A DNA stretch of 64,000 bases from NCBI GenBank assembly GCA_965220745.1, contig CBDCQT010000010.1:64001-128000 (forward strand), in the 5' to 3' direction. The notes beneath the pieces are model-generated. The model had not been told where the DNA came from. It ran no database searches and saw only the letters and a list, made by a program, of their open reading frames with translations. The stretch is from Alphaproteobacteria bacterium (GTDB lineage Bacteria > Pseudomonadota > Alphaproteobacteria > UBA828). Both the position numbers and the translations under genes were made by a program. Positions 28,134-53,377 of the stretch are shown here, piece by piece; within the stretch, counting starts at the first letter, position 1; every line of letters begins with the position of its first letter.

Positions 28134-28187
28134 CCGGACCATGGTGCGGTGCACGACGCGCCGGGGCCGTGACAGGATCCCGCCATG
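28134..28187 (+). promoter_or_regulatory. Putative Mor/C-type activator-dependent leaderless promoter, copy D (orphan)
   Basis: CCGGACCATGGTGCGG (28134-28149) + N23 + CAGGAT (28173-28178) + N6 + ATG (28185); same spacing as three copies before phage-derived genes. Confidence 0.6.
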
Positions 28188-28230
28188 CGGTGGGCGAGCG
28201 AATGGGTCGTAGCCGGTGGGGTTGCCATAT

Positions 28231-28684
28231 GGATGCGCGGATACCCGGAACGAGTCCGGGCATGTCCGCGCATGACGGGATGGGGCATCGCGTGCGACGG
28301 ATGTTGCGGGGCGCGACACAATGTCCACGCGCGTTGGGTGCGCGATGACGGGAACGTCGGGCGGGCACTTGGGCGACTCTCGGGCGGAAAACGTTGCCGT
28401 GGAATGCCACTCATCCCAGCCGTCCCGCCTAATCCCGGCGCGTCCCGCATGAAATTAAGTTGTCGCATCCCACTTTCGTCACGGGGCGTTCTTTCGGCCC
28501 ACCCGTTCTCCCACATCGTCATGCCCCGACTTGTTCGGGGCATCCACGTGCTCGCCCAACGCATGGCGGGCCCGGCTGAGAAAGATGCCCGGAACGAGTC
28601 CGGGCATGACGGTATGTGGGGGAGCGCGGTTGCTGGAGATGCGCGGATGCCCGGAAAGAGTCCGGGCATGTCCGCGCATGACGG
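28231..28684. repeat. Cluster of alphaproteobacterial-type palindromic (REP/RPE-like) repeats
   Basis: Units GATGCCCGG..CCGGGCATGACG / CGTCATG..GCATCCACG at ~28231-28278, 28517-28550, 28584-28612, 28638-28684. Confidence 0.8.
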
Positions 28685-28714
28685 TTTGGGGGCGTAAGGG
28701 CGTGGCCGGCGCGG

Positions 28715-30709
28715 TTACAGCAGCTCCCTTATCGCCTCCACGATGCGGTCCTGCGAGGGGATGACCTCGAGCTCGAGGCGGTCGTTGTAGGGCATCGGCG
28801 TGTGCGGGGCGCCGAGGCGGGCGACCGGCGCGTCGAGATAGTCGAAGGCCTTGTCCACCACCATGGCCGCCACCTCGGCGCCGAAGCCGCCGCGCACCCA
28901 GGCCTCGTGCACGATGAGGAGGCGGTTGGTCTTGCGCACGCTGGCGAGGATTGTCTCCTCGTCCAGCGGCTGCAGGGTGCGGGGGTCGATCACCTCGACG
29001 CTGATGCCGTCCCGCTCCAGCACCGTGGCGGCGCTCAGCGCGCGCGGCACCATGGCGGACGTCGCCACCACGGTCACGTCCGTGCCCGCGCGCTTGATGT
29101 CGGCCTTGCCGAGGGGGATGGCGTAGAGCTCCTCCGGCACCGGGCCGTTGCCGCCGAGGTAGAGCAGCTTCTGCTCCAGGAAGACCACGGGGTTCTCGTC
29201 GCGGATCGCGGCGACCAGCAGTCCCTTGGCGTCGTAAGGGGTGGACGGCGCCGCCACCACCAGCCCCGGCACGTGGGTGAACCAGGCCTCCAGGCTCTGG
29301 CTGTGCTGGGCCGCGAGCCGGATGCCGCCGCCCTGCGGGCCGCGCACCACCAGCGGCACCGAGGGCTTGCCCCCAAGCATGAAGCGGAACTTGGCCGCCT
29401 GGTTGACCAGCATGTCCATGGTGAGCGCCACGAAGTCGAAGATCTGGATCTCCACCACGGGGCGCATGCCGGCGATGGCGGCGCCGACGCCGCAGCCGAC
29501 GAAGGTCGCCTCGGAGATCGGCGTGTCGCGCACGCGCTCAGGCCCGTAGCGGTCCATCAGCCCCTTGGAGACGCCGAAGATGCCGCCGGTGGCGCCGACA
29601 TCCTCGCCCATGAGGAAGACCCTGTCGTCGCGCAGCATCTCCTGGTCCAGCGCCTCGTTGAGCGCCTCGGGGTAGGAGAGCTCGCGCTCGGTCTCCGGCC
29701 CCGGCTCGGTGTGCGCCGCGTGGGGGGCGTAGACGGCATCGAGCATGACGTGCACCGGGGGCTCCGGGCTCTCGCGGCCGTAGGAGACGGCGGTCTCGAT
29801 CTCATCGTCCACGGCCTGCGTGGTCTCGTCGAACTGCTCGTCGGAGAAGCTGGCTTCGGAGGTCAGGCGCCTCTCCATGCGCGCGATGGGATCGCGATCG
29901 AGCCACGACTCAAGCTCATCCTCCGGCCGCGGGTCGCGCAGGTTGACCCGGAGCGAGTGCTGGCCGTGGCGGTAGGTCATGGCCTCGATCAGCGTCGGTC
30001 CCTCGCCGGCGCGGGCGCGGTCCACCGCCTCGCGCAGCACGAGGTAGACCTCGACGCCGTCGTTGCCGTCCACGGTGATGCCGGGGATCTCGTAGGAGGC
30101 CGCGCGGTTCGAGACCTGGGAGACCGCCGTGGTGTTCCGATAGGAGGTCGACAGCGCGTACTGGTTGTTCTCGCAGACGAAGATCACCGGCAGCTTCCAC
30201 ACCGCCGCCAGGTTGAGGGATTCGTGGAAGACGCCCTGGTTCGACGCACCGTCACCGAAGAAGGCCACGGCGACCCGATCCGTCCCCTGCAGCTTGGCGG
30301 CGAGGCCCGCGCCGGTGGCGAGCGGCATGGCGGCACCCACGATGCCGTTGGCGCCCATGATGTTGAGCTCCATGTCGGCGATGTGCATGGAGCCGCCGAG
30401 GCCCTGGCAGTAGCCGGTCTGGCGGCCCATCAGCTCCGCCATCATGCGGTCGATGCGCGCGCCCTTGGCGATGCAGTGGCCGTGGCCGCGGTGGTAGGAG
30501 GCGATGATGTCGTCATCGCGCAGCGCCGCGCAGACGCCGGCGGCGATGGCCTCCTCGCCCTTGTAGCTGTGGGCCGTGCCCTTGACGACGCCCTCCTGGA
30601 AGAGGTCGGCGGTCTTGTCCTCGAAGGCGCGGATGCGGCGCATGGTGACGTAGAGGTCGCGGAGGGTCTCCGCCTCCACGGTGATATTGCTGGTCGCGCT
30701 CTCGTTCAT
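28715..30709 (-). CDS. Fused E1 alpha/beta TPP-dependent 2-oxoacid dehydrogenase
   Basis: Alpha part 'GGSMHIAD', '[14 protein letters not shown]'; beta part 'DTPISE', 'AAQHSQ' in one frame; start MNESATS. Confidence 0.9.
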
Positions 30710-30923
30710 CGCCCTTCGCCTCCCTGGCGTGCCGCTCTGGCCCCGACGCATTGTTCACGACTGCAGCGCGCCACGCCAGCCCAAGTGTGCCGGCCGTTCA
30801 TGCCCCCTGCTCCCGGAAAGTCTGCCGGAAGGAACGAAATGATTTGACCGGTGCACCGGGCAGTCGAAGGATCGACGCCCGCGACGCCTTGCCGCGCGCG
30901 AGAGGTGCGATGGACCGGATGCC

Positions 30924-32159
30924 GTGATCGCTCAGGCCATACTGCGGAGGCCGCCGGCGTTGATCGCCGTGATGTGCCTCGCCGAGGTGCTCGCGATGAC
31001 CGGCTTCGCGGCCTACTGGTCGCTGCTGCCAGTGCTCCAGGCCGAGTGGCACATGAGCAATGCCCTGGCCGGCTGGCTTTCGGGCGCATTCTTCGGCGGC
31101 TATGTCCTCGTGGTCGCGTTTCTGACCGCGATGACGGACCGGGTCGATGCCCGCTACGTCTTCATCCTGGGTGCGGCGCTGTCTGCCGCCGGCCTGGTCG
31201 GGCTGGCGCTGCTGGCAACGGGATTCTGGTCGGCTCTGCCGTGGCGCGTGATCGCGGGCGCGGGCCTCGCCGGCACCTACATGCCGGGCCTCAAGGTGCT
31301 CACCGACCGCCTGCCGCAAGAACGACAGGCGCGTGCCGTCGCCTTCTACACGTCCTCCTTCAGCATCGGCACGGCCGTGTCCTATTCCCTCGCGGGCGGC
31401 GCGCTGGAGTGGTTCGGCTGGCGCGGCGCCCTGCTGTTCACGGCCGCCGGCCCGGTCCTTGCCGGCATCGCGCTTGCGACGATCGTTGCACCAAAGCAGC
31501 CGGAAGCGGCCACCGAGGAACGCGGCCACGTGCTCGACTTCCGCCCGGTGCTGCGCTCGCGGGAGACCATGGCCTACATCATGGCTTACGCCGGCCACGG
31601 GGCCGAGCTCTTCGCCATGCGCTCCTGGATCGTGCCCTTCCTGGTGTTCTGCCTGGGCAGCGGCAGCGGACGCGAACTCAACGCCACGCTCTTCGCCACG
31701 GCGATCGCCCTCGCCGCGGTGGTGTCGAGCATCGGCGGAGCGGAGCTCGCGTTGCGAATCGGCCGCGTGCGTCTGCTCACGTGGGTGATGCTGGCGACCT
31801 TTGCGATCAGCGTCGCGGTCGGCTTTTCCTCGCCGCTGCCCTTCGCCGCAGTGGTGGTGCTTTGCCTGATTTATTCTGCCGCGATTCAGGCCGATTCTGC
31901 GGCGCTTACCGCCGGTGCCGTCGCGACCTCGCCGGTGGGTCATCGCGGCGCGACGCTGGCGGTGCATTCGACGCTGGGGTTCGGTGGCTCGCTGTTCGCG
32001 CCGGCGCTCGTGGGCGTAGTGCTCGACGTTGCCGCGCCACTGGGCGGCACGACCGCGTGGGGTCTCGCTTTCCTTTCAATGGGATCGATGGCGCTGCTCG
32101 GCTACGTTTTTTTCCTGCTGGTACGCCGACGCCCGGCTCATGGGTCGACCTGGGGATAG
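30924..32159 (+). CDS. MFS transporter
   Basis: About 12 hydrophobic segments, motif A-like 'AMTDRVDAR'. Confidence 0.88.
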   Translation: MIAQAILRRPPALIAVMCLAEVLAMTGFAAYWSLLPVLQAEWHMSNALAGWLSGAFFGGYVLVVAFLTAMTDRVDARYVFILGAALSAAGLVGLALLATGFWSALPWRVIAGAGLAGTYMPGLKVLTDRLPQERQARAVAFYTSSFSIGTAVSYSLAGGALEWFGWRGALLFTAAGPVLAGIALATIVAPKQPEAATEERGHVLDFRPVLRSRETMAYIMAYAGHGAELFAMRSWIVPFLVFCLGSGSGRELNATLFATAIALAAVVSSIGGAELALRIGRVRLLTWVMLATFAISVAVGFSSPLPFAAVVVLCLIYSAAIQADSAALTAGAVATSPVGHRGATLAVHSTLGFGGSLFAPALVGVVLDVAAPLGGTTAWGLAFLSMGSMALLGYVFFLLVRRRPAHGSTWG

Positions 32160-32474
32160 ATCGCGACCAAACGCGCCGCTCCAATCCGAACCAAGATTTC
32201 GCGAAAGCGTGAGGCTCTATGTCGATTTGGACATACCATTTTATCTGTTCTATATGGCTTATTTACATGATAATGGAGTGTTCTGCCGCCGGTATCCCTG
32301 TCCTCGCTGGGCCGGTCGCAGCGTAGTCGCGGCGCCGCGTCCGATCCCGGGCCGGCGGCGGACAAGGCCCCGGTGCCGCTGGCGGCCACTGTTTGCCTCC
32401 TGGGCTCTCGGCGGTCCGGTGGCGCCGGGGCCGGCTTTACTTGCTGGGGACATCCACTGCGCCCGCGACTCCGC

Positions 32475-32861
32475 TCAGGCGCCCCCTCCCAGTAGATGTG
32501 CGTTGATCTGATCGAGCTGCTTGTCGAGCCCGGCGATCATCTTGTCCATGCCGTCGAGGGTCGCGCGGAGCGCCGCGATCTCCCCCTGAACCGCCGTGAC
32601 AGAGCGTCCGAGAGTTGCGAACTCACGGGCGTCGGGAAGGGATTCGAGCGCGGTGGAGAGCTTGACCAGACCGCGCTCGACGGTCTCCATGCGCGCGCCC
32701 AGGGCGCCGACGCCGGTGTCGCGCCTCTCCAGGTCGCTGACGCTCTTGGTGGTAACGGCGCCGGCGGATTCGAGCCGGCGCACGCGCACGAAGAGGCCGA
32801 CGCAGGCGGCGACGATGGCGCCGACCACGCCGCGCGCGACCCACGTCTCGAGATCGCTCAT
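32475..32861 (-). CDS. Mu-like gp25/DUF2730-type membrane-anchored coiled-coil protein
   Basis: N-terminal TM, 'LESLPDAREF...VQGEIAAL...LDQINAHLL' pattern; ATGA-coupled to the holin. Confidence 0.6.
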   Translation of the reverse strand: MSDLETWVARGVVGAIVAACVGLFVRVRRLESAGAVTTKSVSDLERRDTGVGALGARMETVERGLVKLSTALESLPDAREFATLGRSVTAVQGEIAALRATLDGMDKMIAGLDKQLDQINAHLLGGGA

Positions 32862-33388
32862 CGACCGGCCGCCCCGCCCTCGCGCGAACGCCGCTTCTCG
32901 ATCTGACGGGCGCCGAACCACCAGAGCATCGCGGCGGTGAAGAGATAGAGCACGGTCTCGACGATGCGGGGCCGGAGGCTTACGGCCGCGAGATCGGAGG
33001 CGCCGAGCAGGAAGTAGATCGCGCCCACGAGGGCGAAGAGGCTCCAGGTGAGCGCCGGCCGCGTGAGGCCCCGCACCACGTCGACGAGCTGCATGGCCCA
33101 GCCCTCGCCGGGTTTGGACCAGCGCCGGGCGGCTTCGCGGTAGGAAGCCTCCATGGCCTCCCACTCGGCCCGCTCGCGGGTGGCCTGAGCCTCGATGGCG
33201 GCATGGGCGGCCGCACCCTCTGCCTCGGCCTTGGCGAGCTCGATGTCGAGACGGCGCAGGTCCAGCTCCTGGGCGTGCCGCTGGCGCGACTGGAAGAAGT
33301 CGACCACGGCCGACAGCGCCGTGCCGAGCAGCCCGGTTGCGCCGCCGGTGAGCACCGAGACGCCGAAGTTGAAAAGCGTTTCAAGCAT
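32858..33388 (-). CDS. Putative holin (3-TM GTA-holin-like)
   Basis: N-terminal hydrophobic helix, coiled coil, 'VRGLTRPALTW...WWFGAR' motif; coupled to endolysin candidate. Confidence 0.65.
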   Translation of the reverse strand: MLETLFNFGVSVLTGGATGLLGTALSAVVDFFQSRQRHAQELDLRRLDIELAKAEAEGAAAHAAIEAQATRERAEWEAMEASYREAARRWSKPGEGWAMQLVDVVRGLTRPALTWSLFALVGAIYFLLGASDLAAVSLRPRIVETVLYLFTAAMLWWFGARQIEKRRSREGGAAGR

Positions 33389-33854
33389 GGGACTCTCCTA
33401 TGCGCCCTACCGCTTCGCTACTTGAGGGCGGGTTGATCTCCAGTTCGAAGGGTTGGTCCGCGGCCCAGTCCATGAGGTGGCGGAAGGCCGTGCGCGAGGC
33501 GAGCACCGCCACCTGCTGGCGCCCCTTCACGCTCAACCGCCCCCGGCGGAGACCGGGGAGCAGGCAGCCCTGGGTGTGGGTATGCCAGCCGCGCTCGACG
33601 TCGCCGCCGAGATTGCCGGCGTGGAAGAGGATGTAGCTGCGGCCCGGTACCTGAGTCACCAGCAGGCAGCGCCGGTGGCGCGGCGAAAGGTGCGGCACCA
33701 CCTCGTAGAGCCCGGCCGGGATGCAGGAGCGGTTGCGCCGGTTGCCGCGCCAGGGCGGTTCCATGATCCAGGTGGGCGAGAGGCCGGGGCCGCTCAGGAC
33801 CCCGAGTGTGCCCTGGTCGCTTTCGTGCCGCCGTGTGAGGGTCGCCCGTTGCAT
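33381..33854 (-). CDS. DUF5675-type phage protein, putative endolysin (peptidase)
   Basis: 'GTLGVL..MEPPW..N....SCIPAGLY...VPGRSYILFHAGN......TQGCLLPG'; start reassigned to ATG at 33854. Confidence 0.75.
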   Translation of the reverse strand: MQRATLTRRHESDQGTLGVLSGPGLSPTWIMEPPWRGNRRNRSCIPAGLYEVVPHLSPRHRRCLLVTQVPGRSYILFHAGNLGGDVERGWHTHTQGCLLPGLRRGRLSVKGRQQVAVLASRTAFRHLMDWAADQPFELEINPPSSSEAVGRIGESHA

Positions 33855-33905
33855 GGGGCGATCATGGCGGGGTGCGCCCCGCCCGTGCACCGCACCATGG
33901 TCCGG
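33852..33905 (-). promoter_or_regulatory. Putative Mor/C-type leaderless late promoter, copy A (lysis cassette)
   Basis: Minus strand: CCGGACCATGGTGCGG (33905-33890) + N23 + CATGAT + N6 + ATG (33854). Confidence 0.75.
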
Positions 33906-33937
33906 GTTCTACCGACCGCGTGCGCGTCGCCTTGCGG

Positions 33938-34480
33938 TCAGTCTACCAACCACTTCTTGCGCCAGAACTCGATCGCGTTGAGCGCCATGGTCGGGCCGAT
34001 AAGGTCGGGTGAGGCGCCGAGCGCCATGCGGCGCGGCGGGGGCGTGTCCGCGCCTTCCCAGGGTAACGGGCCCTCCCAGACGATCTTGTTCTCGATCGCG
34101 TAGAGCGCACAGTCGGGCCGCGCGGCGGGGTAAGCCTTCGCAACAGCCTCGCGGCACTGCTTGAGCGCCCGGTGCTCGTATTGGACATCCCTGATCGGCC
34201 CGGCCCAGATGTGGTCGAGGAGATGGCAGCCGCCTGTCGCGCAATAGACGTACCAGCCGCCCCGCCCGTTGCGGTCGAGCGCGAGCACGGCGTAGCCGCC
34301 GGGCCGCGCATGGCGCAGGTAGTCGCCCCACCACGCCGTGAACCAGGCGGGCGCACCGGCATGCAGCGCATCCGCGGAGGCTGCGGTGGCGCGAATCTTG
34401 TGGCCCTCGACGTGCGTGATCGGCGTGCAGGCGGCGAGCGCGACGGCCGCCAGAACGCCGATCAGAGCTGCGCGGCGCAT
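33938..34480 (-). CDS. Lipoprotein of unknown function, coupled to the repressor gene
   Basis: MRRAALIGVLAAVALAA|C lipobox; ATG overlaps repressor stop (TGATG). Confidence 0.7.
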   Translation of the reverse strand: MRRAALIGVLAAVALAACTPITHVEGHKIRATAASADALHAGAPAWFTAWWGDYLRHARPGGYAVLALDRNGRGGWYVYCATGGCHLLDHIWAGPIRDVQYEHRALKQCREAVAKAYPAARPDCALYAIENKIVWEGPLPWEGADTPPPRRMALGASPDLIGPTMALNAIEFWRKKWLVD

Positions 34481-35382
34481 CACTCGAAGGTGCGAGAGGC
34501 CCAGCGCACCTCGCCGATCACCTCCGCCTCCCGCGGCCACGGCACCGGCTGCCAGGACGGGTGATCGCTCGCGAGGAACCATTGCCGGCCGCGCCGCTCC
34601 AGCCGCTTCACGACCAGGCCCTCGCCGGTGGTGACCACGAAGATGCGCCCGGAACGGCGGCGGGTGCGGTCGCGGTCCACCAGGATCTTGGAGCCGGCCG
34701 GCAGCGTGGGCTCCATCGACTCGCCCCGCACCGAAATCACCACGCAGCGCGTCGGGTCGATGCCTTGGCCATCGAGCCAGTCACGGCGGAACCAGACCGG
34801 ACCCTTGACCGGTGCATCGTCGAGATTGACCGTGCCGCCGCCTGCCGCCGCTGCGACCTCGCGCGTCCCCACCGAGCGCGCGCCGGGCGGCACGCCGTTC
34901 TCGTTCGCTGCAGCGACCGGCCGGGCGTCGGAGTCGGTGAAGCCCGCCACAGGGGGCGCGCCCAGCTCCTCCGGGATCGGGTCGCCGCCAGCGTCTGCGA
35001 CGAGCCCCACCAGCGCCCGGACCGGCCCCTCCAGGCTGAATATCGGCACCGCCGGCGGGGCTGCCGGCAATGCACCGCCCCACTCCGTACCCGTCAATTC
35101 CGACAGTGCTCCCGCTCCCCCCAGGCCGACCTCGTCGTCCTCATCGTTGGCGCGCGCATCGGCAGGCGGACCGATCGAAAGTGTGAGCCCGAGCGCAGCA
35201 CAGATCTCGGCCGCGCGGTCCACCGAGGGCGCCTGTTGGCGGGTCGGGTCCAGAATTCCCCGCAGCGTCCAGGGCCGGAGCCCGCGGGCCGCCTCGAAGC
35301 GCCGCGCGCCCACGCCGGCGGCCGCCAGCGCCTCGCGCACGGCACGGCGGATCTGCTCGCTCGGTCGAGTCGATTCGTTCAT
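34480..35382 (-). CDS. CI-like repressor with HTH and S24 autopeptidase domain
   Basis: N-terminal HTH ('PSVDRAAEICAALG'), A-G site 'AAAAGGG', catalytic 'VRGESMEP' Ser and 'LVVKRL' Lys; TATATT-N6-ATG suggests a leaderless start at 35382. Confidence 0.88.
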   Translation of the reverse strand: MNESTRPSEQIRRAVREALAAAGVGARRFEAARGLRPWTLRGILDPTRQQAPSVDRAAEICAALGLTLSIGPPADARANDEDDEVGLGGAGALSELTGTEWGGALPAAPPAVPIFSLEGPVRALVGLVADAGGDPIPEELGAPPVAGFTDSDARPVAAANENGVPPGARSVGTREVAAAAGGGTVNLDDAPVKGPVWFRRDWLDGQGIDPTRCVVISVRGESMEPTLPAGSKILVDRDRTRRRSGRIFVVTTGEGLVVKRLERRGRQWFLASDHPSWQPVPWPREAEVIGEVRWASRTFE

Positions 35383-35456
35383 GTGCACAATATAGCACAA
35401 ACGGTTGTGCATAAAAGTGCTTGATATCGTCATGTGTGATCGTGCATATATGTCTT
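35383..35456. promoter_or_regulatory. Divergent cI/cro promoter-operator region
   Basis: AT-rich gap with dyad GCACAA-ACGG-TTGTGC (35395-35410), further TGCAC/GTGCA half-sites, and TTGATA -35-like at 35421. Confidence 0.7.
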
Positions 35457-35708
35457 ATGGTGCACAGTGACCAACTGCTCGTTACCCTCATCCACGCCTT
35501 TGCGGACGCCCGCAGCCTCTCCGTCTCCTACGCGTCGCGCCTCTTGACCGGCAGCGGCGACACGGTCGACCGCGTCACCGCCGGCGCGAGCATCACCGCG
35601 CGCCGTGCCGAGACCATCCTCCGCCGCGCCTCGCAGAACTGGCCCGCCGATCGCGCCTGGCCGGCGGACATTCCCCGCCCCGCGCCCGCGCCGAAAACCA
35701 ATAAGTAA
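35457..35708 (+). CDS. Cro-like small DNA-binding protein
   Basis: 83 aa, divergent from repressor, C-terminal 'NWPADRAWPADIPRP' motif typical of alphaproteobacterial prophage Cro-like proteins. Confidence 0.7.
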   Translation: MVHSDQLLVTLIHAFADARSLSVSYASRLLTGSGDTVDRVTAGASITARRAETILRRASQNWPADRAWPADIPRPAPAPKTNK

Positions 35709-35730
35709 TGGATTTGAAAGGGAGAACCCA

Positions 35731-36276
35731 ATGGCCGGAACCCATGCGCCACCAGTGACCTCTATGGAGGACATCGTCGCCTTCGCCCGGAGCTTCGCCG
35801 CTGCGCGGGCGACGACCGAGGCGCTGGCCGAAGACATCAAGGCGTTGCAACGCAAGGCCCTGGCTGGCCGGCTTCGTGCGCTGCGTAACCGCATTGCCGA
35901 GCAGTCGGCATCCGAAGACGCGCTGCGCACCGCAATCCTGGCCCGGCCGGACCTCTTCGTCAGCCCGCGCACGATTACGGTGGACGGCATCAGGCTCGGG
36001 CTCCGCAAGCAGCCCGGCGCCATTTCGCTGGACGACGAGGCGCTGACCATCGAGCGGCTGCGCGCGCGCTTTCCAGACCAAGCCGAGGCGCTGATCCGGG
36101 TCAAGGAGACGCTCGACCGCAGCGCGCTCCGCAAGCTCCCTGCGGGCGAGCTCGCGCAGATCGGCGTCACCATCGCGAAGGCGTCCGACGAAGTGACCAT
36201 TGTCGCCGCGCAAGGCGATCTCGACCGCATCGTCGCCGCCTTGCTGGACGACCACGCACCGGCGGAGGCGGCATGA
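35731..36276 (+). CDS. Mu Gam-like host-nuclease inhibitor
   Basis: Coiled coil then 'PDLFVSPRTITVDGIRLGLRKQPG...LIRVKETLDRSAL...LAQIGV'; SD GGAG upstream. Confidence 0.75.
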   Translation: MAGTHAPPVTSMEDIVAFARSFAAARATTEALAEDIKALQRKALAGRLRALRNRIAEQSASEDALRTAILARPDLFVSPRTITVDGIRLGLRKQPGAISLDDEALTIERLRARFPDQAEALIRVKETLDRSALRKLPAGELAQIGVTIAKASDEVTIVAAQGDLDRIVAALLDDHAPAEAA

Positions 36277-36902
36277 GGAGCGGACGCCAGCGCACCATGC
36301 GGCGGGAGGAGGCGCGGCCGGCGGCAGTGCCGGGCGCCCGCGCCCGCGCCGAGCGGCTGTGGGACGAAACGATCGTGCAGCCCTACGCAGCCGAGAGCGA
36401 TGCGAGCGAATCAAACGGCGCTCCCCTCCCTTCCGGGCCGGCGACGCGCAAGCTGCGGGCGCTCTGGCACAGCGCGTACCACCTGGGCCTGATCCACGAC
36501 CGCTCGGACGACGCGCTCGGTGCTTGGCTCCGTCGCCTCGCGCACCTCGATGGGAACGCCTGCGCCGAACCGGCCCGCCTCGACCGCCCCATCCAGGCAC
36601 TCAAGGCCTGGCTCGCGCGCGGCGCCGGGGTGGACTGGCGGCCGCACGTCTCCCTCGGGCAGGACGGGCGGGTGCGGGAGACGCGCCGCCCGCGGGCGCG
36701 CGTTCTGGAGGCGCAGTGGCGCCTGCTGCATCGCCAGGGGCGGGTGCGGATCGGAAGTGACGCGGCTCTCGGCGCCTACGCCGCCCGCCTTGTCGGCCTG
36801 GGCCGCACTGATTCGCATCTCGCTCTCAGCAACGCTCAGACCGATGCCCTGATCCGCCACTTCGGCAAGTGCATCCGCGCGGCGAGCGAACGCCATGACT
36901 GA
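36273..36902 (+). CDS. Mu gp16/GemA-like (DUF1018) protein, atypical N-terminus
   Basis: 'RKLRALWHSAYHLGLIHDRSDDALGAWLRR...IQALKAWLAR' GemA C-terminal pattern. Confidence 0.7.
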   Translation: MRSGRQRTMRREEARPAAVPGARARAERLWDETIVQPYAAESDASESNGAPLPSGPATRKLRALWHSAYHLGLIHDRSDDALGAWLRRLAHLDGNACAEPARLDRPIQALKAWLARGAGVDWRPHVSLGQDGRVRETRRPRARVLEAQWRLLHRQGRVRIGSDAALGAYAARLVGLGRTDSHLALSNAQTDALIRHFGKCIRAASERHD

Positions 36903-37242
36903 TGCCGCGCCTCTCCCCGGCGTGCTGGAGGAGATTGCGGATATCGCGGGCAGGCCGACGGCGATCGCGATGGCGCTGGCCTGGGGCGGGCGGGAGGTTC
37001 ACATCCCCAAACCGCGCTATCTGGCGCGACACCCCGACCACCCCCTCGCCCGCCTGCTGGAGGCCGAGGGGACCGCGTTCCAGGTCGCCGACTATCTCGG
37101 CGGTTCCGGCGTCTACCTGCCGCGGGCGCGCCGTGCCTGCGCCGTCCACCTCGCCGCCGCCGGCGCGACCGCCGTCGAGATCGCGGCGCGCCTCTCCCTC
37201 TCCCCCAGCGCGGCGCGGCGCTACATCAGGGGCGTGTCCTGA
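36895..37242 (+). CDS. Mor/C-family transcription activator
   Basis: 'LPGVLEEIADIAG...AWGGREVHIP...HPLARLL...GGSGVYLP' plus C-terminal HTH 'AVEIAARLSLSPSAARRY'; follows gemA as in Mu-like phages. Confidence 0.72.
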   Translation: MTDAAPLPGVLEEIADIAGRPTAIAMALAWGGREVHIPKPRYLARHPDHPLARLLEAEGTAFQVADYLGGSGVYLPRARRACAVHLAAAGATAVEIAARLSLSPSAARRYIRGVS

Positions 37243-38069: not shown

Positions 38070-38328
38070 GTAAGCCGGCGCCGCCTGGAATCCCGCCTGT
38101 CTCACTTATCTCACTTATCCCACTGGTCTCACCGAATCCCGGCGAATCCCGCCTGAACTTTTGGCGTGCCCGTCTCACGCGGGAGAGCGCGATGCCGCGT
38201 GGGACGCGACTCTCTTTCCTCGCTGACGCTGCCGGTAGCGATCCCGCTGCCAGCGAAGAGCGGTTGACTTGGCGCCGCCCGATGCGTCAGGATTTTACCC
38301 AGAGTGAAATCAGGGGGCGCCTCGGGAG

Positions 38329-43582: not shown

Positions 43583-44391
43583 GCCCGCCGCTGCTCGAAG
43601 TGCACGGCGCGAGCAAGGTGTTCCGGCTGGAGGATCGCGAGGTCCCTGCCCTGCTCGATGTCTCGTTCGATGTCCGGGAGGGCGAGTGTCTCGCCATCGT
43701 GGGCGAATCCGGTGCCGGCAAGACCACGGTCGCCAACCTGATCCTCGGTGTCTATCCGCCGACCGCCGGCGCCATCCTGATGCACGGCGAGCCTTTGCCC
43801 GCCCGCCGGCGCCGCGAGCACCGGCGCGCCATCCAGCTGGTGCAGCAGAACCCGCTTTCCACGCTCAACCCGAAACGCACCGTCGGCGCCTCGCTCCGCC
43901 TTGCGCTGGATGTGCACCGCATCGGCGAGCGGCGCGAGCGGCCTGAGATCGTGGCGACGCTGCTGGAAGAGGTGGGCCTACCCGGCGACTTCGCGCGGCG
44001 CTATCCCGCAGCGCTCTCCGGCGGGCAGCGGCAGCGGGTCGCGGTCGCCCGCGCGCTGGCCTGCCGCTCGGAGCTGGTGGTGCTGGACGAGCCCACCTCC
44101 TCGCTAGACGTGCTGGTGCAGGCGCGCGTGCTGCGGCTGCTGGAGGAGCTGAAGCCGCGGCGCGGGCTCACCTATCTCTTCATCACCCACGATCTCTCAG
44201 TGGTGCGCAACTTCGCCGATCGTGTCGCGGTGTTCGAGAAGGGCCGCCTGCTGGAAATCGGCGTGACTGAGGCGCTGTTCGCAGAACCCGAGCACCCCTA
44301 CACGCGGCGCCTCATCAGCGCCGTGCCGGTGATCTCCCGCGAGGAGGAGATGGTCCGCGACCGGCTCGCAGAAGGAAGGCTCGACGCATGA
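43579..44391 (+). CDS. ABC ATP-binding protein (DppF-like)
   Basis: GESGAGKT, LSGGQRQR, 'PEHPYTRRL'. Confidence 0.92.
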   Translation: MSPPLLEVHGASKVFRLEDREVPALLDVSFDVREGECLAIVGESGAGKTTVANLILGVYPPTAGAILMHGEPLPARRRREHRRAIQLVQQNPLSTLNPKRTVGASLRLALDVHRIGERRERPEIVATLLEEVGLPGDFARRYPAALSGGQRQRVAVARALACRSELVVLDEPTSSLDVLVQARVLRLLEELKPRRGLTYLFITHDLSVVRNFADRVAVFEKGRLLEIGVTEALFAEPEHPYTRRLISAVPVISREEEMVRDRLAEGRLDA

Positions 44392-44470
44392 ACCCGTCGA
44401 TGACTGTCGCCCCCTCCTCACCCCGGCCCTCTCCTCCCCTCGATTTCCCTTGCCCCGAGGAAGTCCGCTG

Positions 44471-46543
44471 ATGACCAAGACCATCCGCGTCGCCACCGAT
44501 GTCGGCGGCACGTTCACCGATCTTCTGGTTCTCGAATCCGACGACGCCAATGGCACGTCGACCGTCCGCAGCGCCAAGGCCGACACCACCCCCGGCGGCT
44601 ACGAGGAGGGCGTGTTCGACGTGATGGCCAAGGGTGGCGTCGCTGCGGACGCGATCGACTTCCTCGCCCACGGCACCACGGTGGTCATCAACGCGCTGAC
44701 CGAGCGCACCGGCGTCAAGGTCGGGCTGGTTACCACGCAGGGCTTTCGCGACACGCTGGAGATCGCGCGCGGCAACCGACCCGACTTCTTCAACCTGCAT
44801 TATCAGAAGCCCGCGCCCTTCGTGCCGCGCAGCCTGCGCCGCGAGCTGCCGGGCCGTATGGACTACCACGGGCAGGAAATGCAGCCTCTTGACCTCCGCC
44901 CCTTGCCGGAGATCGTCGCCGACTTCCAGGCGGAAGGCGTGGAGGCGGTCGCGGTCTGCTTCATCCACGCCTACGCCAATCCGGCGCACGAGCAGGCGGC
45001 GCTCGCGGAACTCGAGCGGCTCTGGCCGGAGGTCTCCGCCATCTCCTCCCACCAGATCACGCGCGAATGGCGGGAATATGAGCGCACCAGCACCGCCGTG
45101 CTCTCGGCCTACGTGCAGCCGGTAGCGGAGCGCTACCTGCAGCGCCTCGATGCCGGCCTCGCGGAGCGCGATTTCGGCGGCGGGCTCTACATCATGCAGT
45201 CCAACTGCGGCGTCGATTCGGTGGACACGGTCTCGCGCATCCCGATCACGATGGTGGAATCGGGGCCGGCCTCGGGCGTCTGGGGCGCGGCCGAGCTTGG
45301 CCGCCTGATCGGCGAGCCCAACGTGCTCGCGCTCGACATCGGCGGCACCACCGCCAAGTGCTCGCTGATCGAGGACGCGCGCGTGCGCATCAAGACCGAC
45401 TACTGGATCGGGCGGAGCCGCGCCACGGCCGGCTATCCGATCATGGTGCCGGTGGTCGATCTGGTGGAGATCGGCAACGGCGGCGGCTCCATCGCCTGGG
45501 TCGACGACTTCGGCAAGCTGCGGGTGGGGCCGCGCTCCGCAGGCGCCATGCCGGGCCCGGCGGCCTACGGGCGCGGCGGGATGGAAGCGACCACGACCGA
45601 CGCCAACCTCTGGCTCGGCCGCATCAACCGCGACTACTTCTGCGGCGGGGCGGTGGAGGCCGACATGGACGCGGTGCAGAAGGCCATCGAGGCGGTGGGC
45701 GCCCGGCTCGGCGTGGACGCCGACGAGGCCGCCCGCGGCATCGTGCGCATCGCCAACAACAACATGGTCAACGCGCTCAAGCTGGTCTCGGTCAACCGGG
45801 GCTTCGATCCGCGCGACTTCACCCTGATCGCCTTCGGCGGCGGCGGCGCGATGCACGCGGTGGCGCTGGCGCAGGAGCTGGGCGTGACCAAGGTGGTGGT
45901 GCCGGCCGATGCCTCGGTGTTCTCCGCCTGGGGCATGATGATGTCCGACCTGCGCCGCGACGACGTGGTGACGCTGCTCGTGGATCTCGACGCCGAACAC
46001 GCGGACGCCATCGAGGCTGCGTTCGCCGAGACCGAGGAGCGCGCCCGCGACCGCTTCGCCTCGGAAGGCGTCGATGCCGGCGCGGTCCGGCTCTCGCGCT
46101 TCGGCCGCTTCCGCTACCAGAACCAGGAGCACACCACCGAGGTGCCCCTGGGCGCGGACCCGGTGACGGCGGAGCGCGTCGCCGCCATCGAGGCCGACTT
46201 CCACGAGACCTACGAGCGCGAATACACTTACAGGCTGGATGCGCCGGTGGAGATGGTGGGCTTCCACGTCGTTGCCAGGGTCGAGATCGGCAAGCTCACC
46301 ATGACGCGGCGCGAGGTCACGGGACGGGCGCTCGACGAGGCACGGAAGGGGAACCGCCCCGTCGATTACGCGCTCGAAGGCGTGCGCGAGGCGGCCATCT
46401 ACGACGGCGAGAGGCTGGAGCCTGGCATGGCCTTCGACGGGCCGGCCATCGTCGAGGATCCGGGGACGACCGTGGTGGTGCATCCGGGCAACCACGCCGA
46501 GGTCGACGACTTCGGTAACATTCGCATTCACATCCGCAACTGA
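44471..46543 (+). CDS. Hydantoinase A/oxoprolinase family protein
   Basis: 'TDVGGTFTD', 'HGTTV', 'ESGPASG', 'DIGGTT', 'GNGGGS'. Confidence 0.92.
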   Translation: MTKTIRVATDVGGTFTDLLVLESDDANGTSTVRSAKADTTPGGYEEGVFDVMAKGGVAADAIDFLAHGTTVVINALTERTGVKVGLVTTQGFRDTLEIARGNRPDFFNLHYQKPAPFVPRSLRRELPGRMDYHGQEMQPLDLRPLPEIVADFQAEGVEAVAVCFIHAYANPAHEQAALAELERLWPEVSAISSHQITREWREYERTSTAVLSAYVQPVAERYLQRLDAGLAERDFGGGLYIMQSNCGVDSVDTVSRIPITMVESGPASGVWGAAELGRLIGEPNVLALDIGGTTAKCSLIEDARVRIKTDYWIGRSRATAGYPIMVPVVDLVEIGNGGGSIAWVDDFGKLRVGPRSAGAMPGPAAYGRGGMEATTTDANLWLGRINRDYFCGGAVEADMDAVQKAIEAVGARLGVDADEAARGIVRIANNNMVNALKLVSVNRGFDPRDFTLIAFGGGGAMHAVALAQELGVTKVVVPADASVFSAWGMMMSDLRRDDVVTLLVDLDAEHADAIEAAFAETEERARDRFASEGVDAGAVRLSRFGRFRYQNQEHTTEVPLGADPVTAERVAAIEADFHETYEREYTYRLDAPVEMVGFHVVARVEIGKLTMTRREVTGRALDEARKGNRPVDYALEGVREAAIYDGERLEPGMAFDGPAIVEDPGTTVVVHPGNHAEVDDFGNIRIHIRN

Positions 46544-46562
46544 GCGAGACGGCGGCAGCACG

Positions 46563-48230
46563 ATGAACGCGATGACCAACGATCCGATCACCCTCGAGAT
46601 CATCCAGAACTCGCTGCAGAGCGCAGCCGACGAGATGTTCGCCGCCATGAGGAAGACGGCGATGAGTTCGATCATCTACGAGGTGCTCGACATGGGCACC
46701 GGAATTACCGACGCCAGGGGCGAGATCGCCTGCTCCGGCGCCGGCATCCCGGCCTTCGTCGGCGTGCTCGACAAGGCGGTGGCGGTGATCGTGGAGAAGT
46801 TCGACGAGCCCGGCGCCATCGAGCCCGGCGACGTCTTCGTCACCAACGACCCCTACTACGGCGGGGTGACGCACCTGAACGACATCGTGGTCGCGATGCC
46901 GGTCTTCGCCGACGGCCGGATCATCGCCTGGACCTCGAACATCGCGCACAACTCCGACGTGGGCGGCATGGCGCCGGGCTCGCTCACAGGCGAGGCGACG
47001 GAGATCTTCCAGGAAGGACTCAGGCTGCCGGCCATCAAGATGATCTCCAGGGGCGAGCCGATCCGGCCGGTGTTCGAGATCATCAAGGTCAACTCGCGCA
47101 TGCCCGACGTGCTCGAAGGCGACGTCTGGGCGGCGATCGCGTCCGTCCGTATCGGCACCGCGCGGCTCACGGAGATCGCCGAAAAATATGGCGCCGCCAC
47201 CTTCGAGCAGGCGATGACGGCCTTCATGGAATACGGCGAGTGGGTCTCCCGCGCGGCGCTCACGACGCTGCCCAAGGGCACCTTCTCGCTCGCGGAAGAG
47301 CAGGACGACGGCCAGGTGTACAACGTCGAGATCGCCATCCGGGACGAGGAGTTCGTGGTCGATCTCAGGAACAACCCCGACCAGGCAACCAACCCGGTCA
47401 ACACCAGCCGGGACGGGGTGATGGTGGCGGCGCAGATGATCTTCAAGTCGCTGACCGACCCCTATTCGCCGTGCAACGCGGGCTCCTTCCGCCCGATCCG
47501 CCTGCTGACGCGCGAGGGCTCGGTGTTCCACGCCGAGGAGCCGGCGCCCATCGGCTTCTATTACGAGATCGACCTGCGCGCCTACGATCTGATGTGGCGC
47601 TGCCTCGCCCAGCACATGCCGGAGCGCCTGGCGGCGGGGCATTTCGCCTCGGTGTGCGGCACCTTCATCGGCGGCATCCACCCGGATACCGGCCGCCAGT
47701 ACACGATCATCGAGCCGCAGCTCGGCGGCTGGGGCGGCCGCGAGGGCCGCGACGGCAACAATGCGATGTTCTGCGGCTTCCACGGCGAGACCTTCAACTG
47801 CCCGGCTGAGGTCAACGAAGCCCGCAACGGCCTCTACGTCGACCAGATGGCGCTCAACCTGGAGCCCGGCGGCGAGGGCCAGTACACCGGCGGGCGCGGC
47901 ATCGTCATGGACTATCGCGTGCGCGCCAACGACGGATTCCTGACAGTCGGCTACACGCGCTCCAAGTTCCCCGCCTGGGCGCTCGACGGCGGCAACGAGG
48001 GCTCGCCCAACTACGTCGAGTTCATTCCGAACGAGGGCGAGCGCCAGCGCTTCGCCTTCGTCTCCGGCCTCAAGACGCAGCGGGACGACGTGATCCGCGT
48101 GGTGACCGGCAACGGCGGCGGATTCGGCGACCCGAAGAAGCGCGATCCTGCGCGCGTGCGCCGGGACGTGCGGAACGGCCTGATCAGCGCCGAGCGCGCG
48201 CGGGAGGTCTACGGCGTGACGATTGAGTAA
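46563..48230 (+). CDS. Hydantoinase B/oxoprolinase family protein
   Basis: 'NDPYYGGVTHLND', 'AHNSDVGG', 'TGNGGGFGDP'. Confidence 0.92.
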   Translation: MNAMTNDPITLEIIQNSLQSAADEMFAAMRKTAMSSIIYEVLDMGTGITDARGEIACSGAGIPAFVGVLDKAVAVIVEKFDEPGAIEPGDVFVTNDPYYGGVTHLNDIVVAMPVFADGRIIAWTSNIAHNSDVGGMAPGSLTGEATEIFQEGLRLPAIKMISRGEPIRPVFEIIKVNSRMPDVLEGDVWAAIASVRIGTARLTEIAEKYGAATFEQAMTAFMEYGEWVSRAALTTLPKGTFSLAEEQDDGQVYNVEIAIRDEEFVVDLRNNPDQATNPVNTSRDGVMVAAQMIFKSLTDPYSPCNAGSFRPIRLLTREGSVFHAEEPAPIGFYYEIDLRAYDLMWRCLAQHMPERLAAGHFASVCGTFIGGIHPDTGRQYTIIEPQLGGWGGREGRDGNNAMFCGFHGETFNCPAEVNEARNGLYVDQMALNLEPGGEGQYTGGRGIVMDYRVRANDGFLTVGYTRSKFPAWALDGGNEGSPNYVEFIPNEGERQRFAFVSGLKTQRDDVIRVVTGNGGGFGDPKKRDPARVRRDVRNGLISAERAREVYGVTIE

Positions 48231-51755: not shown

Positions 51756-51861
51756 CGGTCATCTCCCGGTATTCGTTGATGCTTGCCGCCATCGTCCCAT
51801 AGGAGCGGTGCTGCGTTCAACGCATAGGCAGCGCGACGGGACTCGCGCCCGATCGCGTGCC

Positions 51862-51915
51862 CCGCACCTTGGTGCGATGGTCGTTGGCGCCGGGTGCCGT
51901 CATGGTAAGGGCATG
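51862..51915 (+). promoter_or_regulatory. Putative Mor/C-type leaderless late promoter, copy C (terminase)
   Basis: CCGCACCTTGGTGCGA (51862-51877) + N23 + CATGGT (51901-51906) + N6 + ATG (51913). Confidence 0.72.
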
Positions 51916-53289
51916 GTTGGCCCTGCTTCTAGCGAATCGCTCCACCTCTCCCTCCTCCCCTATCAGGCCCGCTGGGTGTCGGACCCGGCAGGTTTCAAGG
52001 TGATCGAAAAGGCGCGGCGCATCGGCATCTCCTGGGCCGAGGCCTACGACGCGGTAATGCACGCGGGCTCGAAATGGGGCGGCAACGTCTATTACCAGGC
52101 CTACAACCTGGAGATGACCCGGGGCTTCATCGAGGACTGCGCCGGCTGGGCAGAGAGGTTGCAGAGCAGGGCCGGTGCGCTCGGCGAGACCTTGATGGTG
52201 GAGGATGGGCGTGCCGTGCGGGCCTTCCGCATCGCCTTCGGCTCAGGCAACGAAATCCTCGCCATGACTTCGGCGCCGCGCGCCTTCCGCTCCAAGGGCC
52301 GGCCCGGCGATCTTGCCATCGTCGACGAAGCGGCCTTCGTCGACGACCTCGGCGAAGTGCTGAAGGCGGCGCTCGCCTTCCGCGTCTGGGGCGGGCGGGC
52401 GCACGTCATCAGCACCCACAACGGCGAGGCCAACCCCTTCGCGACGCTCTGCCGCGAGATCGACGAGGGCGCGCGGCCGGGCACGCTGCACCGCACCACG
52501 CTCAAGGAGGCGCTGGCGCAGGGTCTCTTTCGCCGCATCGTCGAGGGGCAGGGCCGCCCCTGGTCGGCCGCCGCCGAGGCCGAATGGGAGGGCGCGCTCA
52601 GGGCCGAATACGGCAGCCATTCGGGCGAAGAACTCGACTGCATCCCCGCCGCCGGTGGCGGGGCCTGGCTCGCGTGGGAGGCGATCCGCGCCTGCGAAGA
52701 CCCCACCGCAGGCGATCCCGCCGCCTTCGCCGGCGGCGGCGCCACCGTCGGCGTGGACGTGGCGCGGCGGCGTGACCTCTGGGTCGCAGCGGTACTCGAG
52801 CAGGTGGGCGACGTGCTCTGGCTGCGCGAGCTGGCGGTCCGCCAGGGCATCCCCTTCAGCCAGCAGCGGGCGATCGTGGGCGACCTTGCGGCGCGCTATC
52901 GGCCGGTGCGCATCGCCGTGGACCAGACCGGCATGGGAGAGGCCGTGGTGGAGCAGCTGCAGGAAGACCTGGGCCGGACCGCGGTCGAGGGTGTGCTGAT
53001 GTCCGGGCCGCGCAGGCTCGATGTGGCAACGGCGCTGCGCGAGGCGGTGGAGGATCGCCGCCTCCGCATCCCACCCGACGCGGAGCTTAGGCGCGATCTC
53101 CATGCCGTCCGCGCCGAGGCCGGGCCGACCGGGGCGCCGCGGCTGCTTGCCGAACGCTCGGGCACCGACGGCCACGCCGACCGATTCTGGGCTCTGGCGC
53201 TGGCCTGCACCGCCGCCCGCGACGGCAGTGCGACCATTGGGGGTGCCAGCGCCGGCCCGCGCGCTGCTTCGCTTGCGGGGTTCTACTGA
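51913..53289 (+). CDS. Mu gp28-like terminase large subunit
   Basis: 'LLPYQARW...IEKARRIGISWAEA', Walker B 'IVDEAAF', 'ISTHNG', nuclease 'GVDVAR..D', 'DQTGMGE', 'HADRFWALALA'. Confidence 0.9.
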   Translation: MVGPASSESLHLSLLPYQARWVSDPAGFKVIEKARRIGISWAEAYDAVMHAGSKWGGNVYYQAYNLEMTRGFIEDCAGWAERLQSRAGALGETLMVEDGRAVRAFRIAFGSGNEILAMTSAPRAFRSKGRPGDLAIVDEAAFVDDLGEVLKAALAFRVWGGRAHVISTHNGEANPFATLCREIDEGARPGTLHRTTLKEALAQGLFRRIVEGQGRPWSAAAEAEWEGALRAEYGSHSGEELDCIPAAGGGAWLAWEAIRACEDPTAGDPAAFAGGGATVGVDVARRRDLWVAAVLEQVGDVLWLRELAVRQGIPFSQQRAIVGDLAARYRPVRIAVDQTGMGEAVVEQLQEDLGRTAVEGVLMSGPRRLDVATALREAVEDRRLRIPPDAELRRDLHAVRAEAGPTGAPRLLAERSGTDGHADRFWALALACTAARDGSATIGGASAGPRAASLAGFY

Positions 53290-53323
53290 CCGGCAGAAGG
53301 CGACCGAGGCGGGCGAAGAGGCC

Positions 53324-53377
53324 CCGCACCATGGTCCGGTGCACAGGCCGGGCCGGAGTCCCGATGATCGGGGCATG
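53324..53377 (+). promoter_or_regulatory. Putative Mor/C-type leaderless late promoter, copy B (portal)
   Basis: CCGCACCATGGTCCGG (53324-53339) + N23 + GATGAT (53363-53368) + N6 + ATG (53375). Confidence 0.75.

Follow-up and report, generated by a model that had tools for sequence, protein, structure and literature searches.

To our knowledge, activation of the Mor/C type has been described for one phage, Mu, with five promoters. At the Mu promoter Pm the Mor site is centred at -43.5, with Mor replacing the -35 contact (PMC4390567), and a tetramer mode has been reported for Mor/C (bioRxiv 10.1101/2025.05.02.651988). A layout of this kind occurs in an alphaproteobacterial chromosome, in an oriented 54-bp element that we call E1 (CCGGACCATGGTGCGG-TGCAC-N18-CAnnAT-N6-ATG; the name is distinct from that of the E1-dehydrogenase gene nearby). 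Four copies lie in the window, the stretch of 64,000 nucleotides analysed here (C10:64001-128000), which is part of a genome of 4.82 Mb in 13 contigs with a completeness of 99.96%. A preliminary description of this DNA had read the four copies as binding sites for a Mor-like protein encoded between them, driving leaderless mRNAs of phage genes. We consider it about 60% probable that E1 is an activator-dependent, sigma-70-type promoter of the Mu Pm or late-promoter kind. This reading draws on the fixed geometry of the element, its conservation as footprints, its link to Mu genes, its counterparts in true phages, the PHROG match of the putative activator, the co-occurrence across genomes and the maintenance of the Mor-like and portal genes.

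Direct reading of the sequence bears out the dyad-N23-hexamer-N6-ATG arrangement at all four sites (hexamers CAGGAT, CATGAT, CATGGT and GATGAT), and the TGCAC described after the dyad is present in copies A, B and D.

28134..28187, + strand: copy D; dyad 28134-28149, TGCAC 28150-28154, -10-like CAGGAT 28173-28178, ATG 28185-28187.
33852..33905, - strand: copy A; dyad 33905-33890, -10-like CATGAT 33866-33861, ATG 33854-33852, which is the DUF5675 start codon.
51862..51915, + strand: copy C, the most diverged; CCGCACCTTGGTGCGA, TGGTC replacing TGCAC, -10-like CATGGT 51901-51906, ATG 51913.
53324..53377, + strand: copy B; inverted-orientation dyad CCGCACCATGGTCCGG, TGCAC, GATGAT 53363-53368, ATG 53375, in the 138-bp gap between terminase and portal.

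The four named sites differ from the ideal dyad CCGCACCATGGTGCGG at 1, 1, 2 and 1 positions. With up to 3 mismatches allowed, this dyad has 8 matches in the window, and none of 100 shuffles reaches that number (mean 1.16, largest 4). A chance origin of the sites is ruled out by the shuffles together with a reversed-pattern control, which gave no match in the genome itself or in any of 30 relatives (18 genomes of the same genus and 12 from other genera). The remaining four 3-mismatch dyads (5216, 36290, 54924, 59612) have no hexamer or ATG at the proper distance on either strand and hence count as chance hits.

The genome-wide motif scan proposed earlier extends the picture well beyond the window. 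The 16-mer dyad with at most 2 mismatches has 65 matches; the oriented 21-mer CCGGACCATGGTGCGGTGCAC with at most 4 mismatches has 78, among which 53 show nA...T at the hexamer place and 46 of those also the ATG. In total, the 4.8-Mb genome holds about 46-50 copies of E1, so the count of four is true only inside the window, and the element recurs genus-wide. An ungapped profile of 50 copies reads cc-CCGGACCATGGTGCGG-TGCAC-GGcGCGcGGCGg..GcG.-CAggAT-CGCGcC-ATG. Its information-rich columns are the dyad, TGCAC, the C, A, A and T of the hexamer, and CATG, whereas the N18 spacer is low in information; weaker conservation extends about 20 bases past the ATG. The copies are intergenic, often 2-63 nt past the stop of the preceding gene, and in a hand tally of 37 copies about 16 had convergent neighbours and 3 had divergent ones.

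When transcription is assumed to start at the A of the ATG, the dyad falls at -51..-36 (centre -43.5), TGCAC at -35..-31 and the hexamer at -12..-7. With this assumed start, with which the hexamer-N6 distance agrees, E1 would have in common with Pm a 16-bp dyad centred at -43.5 in place of a -35 contact, and the geometric match to the Mor site that had been pointed out earlier would be exact. A good -35 is lacking: the -35 place, read from the 50-copy profile, is TGCACG, a 3/6 match to TTGACA. The -10 is recognisable as CAnnAT; 53 of the 78 candidates have its second-position A and sixth-position T.

Comparison with relatives indicates which parts of the element are kept. At copy A, the dyad, TGCAC, the hexamer (CATGAT, CATCAT, CAAGAT or AATGAT), N6 and the ATG are retained in 10 of 11 loci, while the 18-base spacer differs, and the DUF5675 protein begins MQRAIL.. 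at this ATG; the eleventh DUF5675 locus is part of the G002 prophage, whose own dyad it carries. Copy B is kept in 8/8 closely related portal loci. Copy C is kept with its ATG in L061 and L058, and L055 keeps the dyad and hexamer without the ATG. A non-coding unit headed by E1 (L037) stands at the orthologous site in 5/5 relatives; aligned between the window genome and four of these relatives, the unit shows a near-unchanged E1, a rewritten interior and a changing length. A second unit (L029), sought in 5 relatives, was found colinear in G006 and with an altered interior in G008, and in G011 a rearrangement breakpoint falls inside its dyad. At the site orthologous to that of copy D, G006 has a unit and G011 part of one; next to the dehydrogenase gene of G015 and G008, no unit was detected.

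The G011 breakpoint also offers a separate observation: the two flanks of the L029 unit lie 43 kb apart in that genome (C1:2685543-2685956 and 2728671-2729566). Because both pieces end in the same 10 dyad bases, E1 copies may serve as recombination points.

At the level of whole genomes, E1 (at most 2 mismatches) is found in 15 of the 18 genus genomes, with 9-69 copies each, and in 0/12 genomes of other genera. A second draw, which brings the same-genus total to 20, adds two positives (17/20), and the negatives are three complete genomes (G012, G016, G017). E1 and the gene for Mu gp27, a small-terminase-like protein, occur in the same 15 of 18 relatives; 13 of these 15 also have the Mor-like gene, the two misses being assemblies 92% and 67% complete, and 0/3 complete E1-free genomes carry it. 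DUF5675 is present in 12 of 18 relatives. The genus genomes are close kin, and these co-occurrence counts are thus without independence.

The sequence NNGGACCATGGTCCNN, spaced from a -10 hexamer as in E1, is also present in genuine Mu-like prophages and viral contigs. The dyad follows a Mor-like homologue by 15-270 nt in seven elements, namely G006:C24, G013:C6, G002:C1 and 4/4 IMG/VR contigs with a Mor-like match, and in these seven independent elements it has the position to be expected of a Mor-dependent promoter, beside the activator gene and before the late genes of Mu-like phages. Within the genus, the distance from the Mor-like gene is 15-22 nt, and the dyad is followed by N23 and the hexamer: TCGGACCATGGTCCGA with CACAAT in G006:C24, GCGGACCATTGTCCGC with CATGGT in the G013:C6 prophage and CGGGACCATGGTCCCG with TACCAT in the G002:C1 prophage. 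The gene order in G002:C1 (Mor-like 205294, DUF5675 206490, gp27 208198, portal 210329) places DUF5675 between the Mor-like gene and gp27, about 850 nt past the dyad. In IMG/VR, a perfect dyad was found in 20 contigs, nine of them with TG(C/A)-N19-20-hexamer, and eight of these hexamers are TAnnnT-like. All four contigs with a Mor-like match have the dyad 40-270 nt after that gene and gp27 another 700-800 nt beyond.

More distant portal loci, in prophages of other Alphaproteobacteria, display the perfect palindrome GCGGACCATGGTCCGC; after it come TGCC, 19 bases and one of TAGTGT, TAATGT and CAAGGT. It heads an operon running through gp27 and terminase, about 2.7 kb upstream of the portal gene. 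The general form in prophages is (G/T/C)(C/G)GGACCAT(G/T)GTCC.., then TGC or TGA, N19-20 and (T/C)AnnnT, before late operons (gp27, terminase, portal), and in five such genomes the perfect dyad forms clusters of 2-5 within 15-25 kb. In the prophage of G032, the order is MuA-type transposase, DUF3164, GemA, a 129-aa weak Mor + HTH_23 protein, the dyad, gp27, terminase and portal. The hexamer-N6-ATG design is seen in some of the phage copies, L064, L134 and L140 among them, and three copies in IMG/VR contigs are of this kind. Since true Mu-like elements share the dyad core, the spacing and the neighbours, we take E1 to be a local version of the late (or middle) promoter used by a widespread Mu-like phage group. 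No published account of this dyad motif in Mu-like phages came up in the literature searched, whose supplementary files were outside the reach of that search.

Intact-looking Mu-like prophages are present in genus-mates of the window genome (G002:C1:205294-211327; G006:C24:8834-16428; G013:C6:356485 onward), each with its own Mor-like gene (47-52% identical) and its own dyad variant. With such a pair in one cell, cross-talk of prophage activators with the host's E1 copies is conceivable.

The genes around the window copies, annotated with Pfam and PHROG, are as follows, together with one short upstream frame.

25960-27774, - strand: AAA_15 ATPase, in an islet of 47% GC.
28715-30751, - strand: E1 dehydrogenase, converging on copy D.
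30924-32159, + strand: major facilitator superfamily (MFS) transporter.
32858-33388, - strand: membrane protein, phrog_6637, second gene of the operon after copy A.
33381-33854, - strand: DUF5675 / phrog_1501, first gene after copy A.
34480-35433, - strand: LexA/CI-like S24 peptidase repressor homologue, phrog_4 'transcriptional repressor'.
36273-36902, + strand: GemA homologue.
36895-37242, + strand: Mor-like activator, 115 aa.
37367-37951, + strand: Dps.
About 12 kb between Dps and terminase: metabolic genes.
51913-53289, + strand: large terminase subunit, Terminase_6C, phrog_2.
53375..53428, + strand: 17-codon upstream frame, from the ATG of copy B to a TGA overlapping the portal ATG (cTGATGg).
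53428-54666, + strand: Mu-type portal protein, Portal_Mu E 7.3e-89.
55202-58654, - strand: pyruvate carboxylase.

Across the genome, the genes that start at or just past an E1 ATG are DUF5675 (copy A), the large terminase (copy C) and seven intact or partial gp27-family genes, plus a 96-codon fragment. All nine genome matches to gp27 have E1 90-170 nt upstream. A beta-lactamase-family gene also opens at or near an E1 ATG; its true start is probably further downstream, because its Pfam domain begins only at residue 65. The portal gene is reached from E1 through the conserved upstream frame, whose length is 17 codons in 8 genomes out of 9; the ninth has 20 codons, a change of +9 nt that keeps the frame. 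The TGATG overlap is found in 9/9, and GGAG stands 9-11 nt before the portal ATG in several genomes. The peptide of this frame (loci L055-L062) has an M(M/T/S)NARS-like N-terminus and a variable C-terminus.

These comparisons revise several gene starts. The ATG of copy A is the start of DUF5675 at 33854, as its conservation in 10 of 11 relatives' loci indicates. The gene had been called an endolysin; its annotation is DUF5675 / phrog_1501, a family with no function assigned. The ATG of copy C is likely the terminase start, at 51913, being kept together with the element in two relatives. In contrast, the ATG of copy B (53375) is out of frame with the portal gene, which starts at 53428 behind the 17-codon frame. 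Copy D opens no gene either: it heads a non-coding unit that points toward the 3' end of the convergent E1-dehydrogenase gene, and the 170-codon frame after its ATG was rejected on GC by codon position (0.68/0.60/0.67, against ~0.7/0.5/0.9 in real genes here).

The Mu-derived genes of the window do not form an intact prophage, a possibility rejected on account of the housekeeping genes between them. The terminase and portal genes are a lone pair with housekeeping genes on either side. A complete prophage or gene transfer agent would bring capsid and tail genes along with them, and no capsid gene was found: Mu gpT, Mu F and the HK97 type, the three capsid or head families searched, are absent from the genome. 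The neighbourhood is old. GemA, the Mor-like gene and Dps are adjacent in 11/11 relatives' loci, and in six relatives a single contig carries both the Mor-like and the portal gene, 17-23 kb from each other. Among 8 related records the identity of the portal protein is 84-96%, and the ratio of nonsynonymous to synonymous substitution rates (dN/dS) is 0.14-0.26 for portal and 0.04-0.23 for the Mor-like gene. The conserved neighbourhood, the portal identity and the low dN/dS indicate that these genes are domesticated remnants of a Mu-like prophage, vertically inherited and under purifying selection, with no recent insertion.

The putative activator, the product of 36895-37242, matches phrog_836 'late transcriptional activator' over its full length (E 7.9e-14). 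It is 42% identical (E 5e-17) to the Mor-like protein of prophage G032, which has MuA transposase, DUF3164 and GemA, and as in that prophage its gene sits after GemA. Many of its homologues are precomputed as PF08765 (Pfam Mor). A C-terminal motif, ARRYxR, is invariant or nearly so (>=90%) in 22 homologues, in keeping with the shared dyad core. A conserved copy of the activator (76-99% identical) is present in 12 genus relatives; G002 and G006 carry in addition a second, ~52%-identical prophage copy, and G013 holds only a 47%-identical homologue. The protein is filed here as Mor-like by its position and its PHROG family, rather than as a proven member of Pfam Mor. The S24 repressor (34480-35433) is a candidate upstream switch of the GemA/Mor-like operon.

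The membership of the activator in the Mor family is borderline. With Pfam Mor the whole protein scores 27.7 bits, above the cut-off of 24.9, and it also matches HTH_23, yet taken singly no stretch reaches the cut-off; a six-frame PF08765 search of the genome (E <= 0.001) gave no match, and against Mu Mor in the PDB (1rr7) its profile reaches E 0.5. A confident structure model (predicted local distance difference test, pLDDT, 91.8) compares poorly by Foldseek with 1rr7 (E 0.84, template modelling, TM, score 0.20-0.22) and with 9l0y_J (E 1.7), its best matches being generic helix-turn-helix domains. The model thus shows no significant likeness to the Mor fold (1rr7 / 9l0y), which combines an N-terminal dimerisation domain with a C-terminal helix-turn-helix. 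Mor itself was crystallised as an intertwined dimer, and a comparison of monomers may be defeated by such a fold.

Points against the promoter reading also concern the element. The first hexamer base is C, not the usual T, and no dyad lies 3' of the Mor-like gene in the window. About 35 of some 46 copies precede non-coding DNA, half of them facing a convergent gene, where a promoter has no obvious product. Frames opened by the E1 ATG mostly lack coding bias, with a third-position GC of 0.55-0.77 compared with 0.83-0.96 in real genes. A phage regulon formed by the co-oriented downstream genes was considered and rejected: the 10 examined, at 126-384 nt, comprise 9 housekeeping or unknown-family genes (groES, pyrB, purQ-like, acyl-CoA dehydrogenase and others) and one IS1595 transposase, and none is phage-like. 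The gp27 gene co-occurs with E1 in 15/15 genomes and so tracks it even better than the Mor-like gene does, which means that the co-occurrence profile cannot name the binding protein. Given the kinship of the genomes, the profile is consistent with a Mor-type promoter rather than proof of one.

On balance, the interpretation given earlier survives in part. The promoter geometry, the phage counterparts and the PHROG match support it, but the element is not a four-site prophage regulon, and most copies front non-coding DNA. An abundant generic repeat unrelated to phage genes had been named as an outcome that would speak against the proposal; the element is indeed abundant, with ~50 copies mostly before non-coding DNA, yet it is linked to Mu genes.

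On the Mor-type promoter reading, a dimer or tetramer of the Mor-like protein would bind the 16-bp dyad centred at -43.5 and recruit RNA polymerase to the -10-like CAnnAT at -12..-7, the place of the weak -35 being taken by TGCAC. Transcription would start at the A of the ATG, so that DUF5675, the large terminase, most gp27-like genes and the 17-codon frame would be read from leaderless mRNA. Copy A would drive the operon of DUF5675 and the membrane protein (32858-33854). What remains fixed of a Mu-like prophage would be the promoter and its activator, together with a small set of Mu-derived genes (GemA, DUF5675 with the membrane protein, terminase with portal, and 1-15 gp27 genes). Multiplication of E1 would have led to 9-69 copies in each genome, most of them in short units that consist of E1, a variable stretch and an ATCCCRC array. 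Candidate triggers are cleavage of the neighbouring S24 repressor and the homologous activator of an infecting Mu-like phage. We infer dyad binding, transcript start, leaderless translation and trigger from the sequence. Contigs of one metatranscriptome and of one likely source run, compared with window positions 28001-48000, come from mixed relatives of 90-99% likeness and are silent on starts, strands and expression.

The non-coding units have a recurrent architecture. Downstream of 21 E1 copies, at 113-544 nt, lies a block of short direct repeats, (A/T)ATCCCRC about every 10 bp, followed by an AT-rich ATGAAATT-like patch and then GTCCCRC. An equivalent block is also found 3' of gp27-like genes. 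In the window, two such arrays can be read.

28393..28480, + strand: iteron block of unit D; ATCCCAGCC GTCCCGCC TAATCCCGGCG CGTCCCGC, then AT-rich ATGAAATTAAGTT, then ..ATCCCAC.
38088..38175, + strand: orphan repeat array after the Dps gene; GGAATCCCGCC TGTCTCAC TTATCTCAC TTATCCCAC TGGTCTCAC CGAATCCCGGCG AATCCCGCC TGAACTTTT.., with AATCCCGGCG also listed within.

The orphan array has no E1 within 600 nt upstream. The repeats combine helical spacing, variable number and an adjoining AT-rich patch; at one orthologous site (L037) the number ranges between species from about 3 to about 13 units. A divergent gp27 paralogue (C10_709858; L014, gene 709236-709724) and one unit (L042, C13_395079) carry CTTGGGCC-type repeats instead of ATCCCRC. 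As repeat type seems to go with gp27 type in this single anecdote, and given the helical spacing and the AT-rich patch, the short repeats are suggested to be binding arrays for gp27-like proteins. True Mu-like phage loci, of which 509,471 bases were searched, gave no repeat block like that of the E1 units.

Searches for other features of the units gave little. Rfam at gathering score returned only a tRNA-Leu in the window and no family on E1 units, and RNAalifold predicts 0 pairs in the consensus of +1..+100 of 26 units. Terminal inverted repeats were not seen by eye in the unit alignments (no repeat tool was run), and exact insertion boundaries or empty sites were not recovered among the relatives' loci compared (D, L029 and L037 sites). 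The tRNA-Leu (anticodon TAA; 5500-5588, +) is the sole RNA gene detected in the window. Unit D lies in the neighbourhood of a second repeat family, REP-like (repetitive extragenic palindromic) and unrelated to E1: a hairpin-type repeat (..GATGCCCGGAACGAGTCCGGGCATG..) with two 54-bp copies, 28232-28285 and 28638-28691, which are 92.6% identical, and further copies elsewhere in the genome. On the other side, copy D adjoins a 604-aa AAA_15 / DUF2813 / AAA_21 ATPase (25960-27774) that resembles a defence-type ATPase, in an islet of 47% GC within a genome of 67% GC.

The prevalence of non-coding copies raises the question of whether they are inert relics, left when a duplicated cassette of late promoter, gp27 and repeats lost its gene in most copies, with E1 persisting through descent and only the gene-fronting copies active. 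The gp27 cassettes and the non-coding units do have common ends, E1 and the repeat block, and intermediates exist: C12_719052 and C13_1007003 retain partial gp27 domains, and C10_695513 a 96-codon fragment. The G011 breakpoint inside an E1 dyad is likewise what recombination between dispersed repeats would produce. However, recent deletion of gp27 from such cassettes was tried as an origin of the units and rejected, as a search with a cassette profile (nhmmer) detected internal gp27 remnants in only 3 of them, the traces expected inside most units being absent. In addition, 46 of 53 copies retain both the ATG and the letters of the -10. At the orthologous non-coding L037 site, moreover, E1 is near letter-for-letter the same in the window genome and four relatives while the interior has been replaced; because E1 is kept while the interior and length of the unit change, E1 itself appears to be under selection. 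We regard inert relics as unlikely.

It is unlikely to a similar degree that the dyad is primarily bound by some protein other than an activator, be it the S24 repressor at an operator, a gp27 protein at a packaging or autoregulation site, or a ParB/SopB-type protein at a centromere. The 15/15 co-occurrence of gp27 with E1, and the presence of E1 before every gp27 gene, would suit a gp27 site, and the S24 repressor gene adjoins copy A. A centromere finds some support in the F-plasmid sopC consensus for SopB co-crystals, which contains the 12-bp core GGACCATGGTCC (PMC2910045) that is also present in prophage dyads (e.g. L152:644). The sharing is probably a coincidence. Neither a centromere nor a packaging site would need the fixed distance and orientation of the dyad relative to the -10 and the ATG, and the E1 copies are dispersed instead of forming sopC-like tandem arrays. 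In true phages, the dyad comes after the Mor-like gene (seven elements, 15-270 nt) and before late operons, not at the repressor or early-promoter region. Better candidates for gp27 binding are the short repeats at the unit ends, given that the C10_709858 paralogue goes with CTTGGGCC-type repeats.

That E1 belongs to a structured RNA (small RNA, riboswitch, terminator) or a miniature transposable element and resembles a promoter by accident is very improbable: the intergenic placement close behind upstream stops, the enrichment between convergent genes, the short hairpin that the GC-rich spacer can often form and the variable presence at copy D's site would fit, but there is no Rfam family, no predicted pair in 26 units, no following T-run and no terminal inverted repeat visible by eye, the conserved letters are the dyad, hexamer and ATG rather than the hairpin-capable spacer, and units are fixed at orthologous sites (L037 in 5/5 relatives, L029 in G006 and G008 of 5).

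A broader scenario can be sketched, although we regard it as a long shot. The genus might keep a dispersed, chromosome-wide satellite of Mu-like phages, in which ~50 late promoters answer the Mor-type activator of the host itself or of an infecting phage and switch on terminase-portal, a lysis-like pair and up to 15 small-terminase paralogues. The ATCCCRC arrays with their AT-rich patch (~30 units) would act as packaging-start or origin-like sites, and host DNA would be packaged into phage capsids, resulting in interference, gene transfer or both.

If the reading of E1 as a Mor-type promoter holds, each of 17 genomes offers a sequence-defined regulon of ~50 sites for studying how a phage activator is domesticated. 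It would also supply a recognition sequence for widespread Mu-like phages of Alphaproteobacteria and a natural set of leaderless transcripts. A promoter design of the Mu type would seem to have been taken over by a host lineage, multiplied tenfold and coupled to a conserved activator and to packaging genes without a capsid. The repeat arrays and the abundance of small-terminase paralogues may be signs of a novel interplay between phage and host.

The closest counterparts of E1 are the Mu-like prophages of Alphaproteobacteria (G031-G035, G002:C1, G006:C24, G013:C6; IMG/VR L130, L132, L134, L139-L142, L146). They have in common with it the core GGACCATGGTCC, the N23 distance, a Mor-like homologue (35-64% identical) and downstream DUF5675, gp27, terminase and portal. 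In the phages compared, the activator gene comes after gemA, the first dyad after the activator gene, and there are several sites per phage. The phage versions differ from E1 in that the dyad is usually the perfect palindrome GCGGACCATGGTCCGC, with TGCC or TGA next to it, the hexamer mostly reads TAnnnT, most copies have a leader of 35-40 nt with GGAG, and there are 2-5 copies per element.

Relative to Mu, the E1 hexamer begins with C and the start would lie at the ATG (leaderless). There are ~50 chromosomal copies as compared with 1+4, and the activator is a fixed host gene of borderline similarity. The E1 dyad sequence we take to be unrelated to the Mor/C sites of Mu. Satellites such as P4, with the Ogr/delta activators of P2, islands of the phage-inducible chromosomal island (PICI) type and gene transfer agents provide precedents for packaging genes that the late activator of a related phage could switch on, and for extra small-terminase genes. 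In contrast to these, the parts are here scattered over the chromosome, and there is no integrase-bounded island. The sopC locus, for its part, is a tandem plasmid array, whereas the E1 copies are scattered, have an orientation and are linked to a -10 hexamer and an ATG. Compared with all of these systems, E1 is new in its genus-wide scale (~50 copies), its domesticated setting, its proposed leaderless design and the repeat arrays joined to it.

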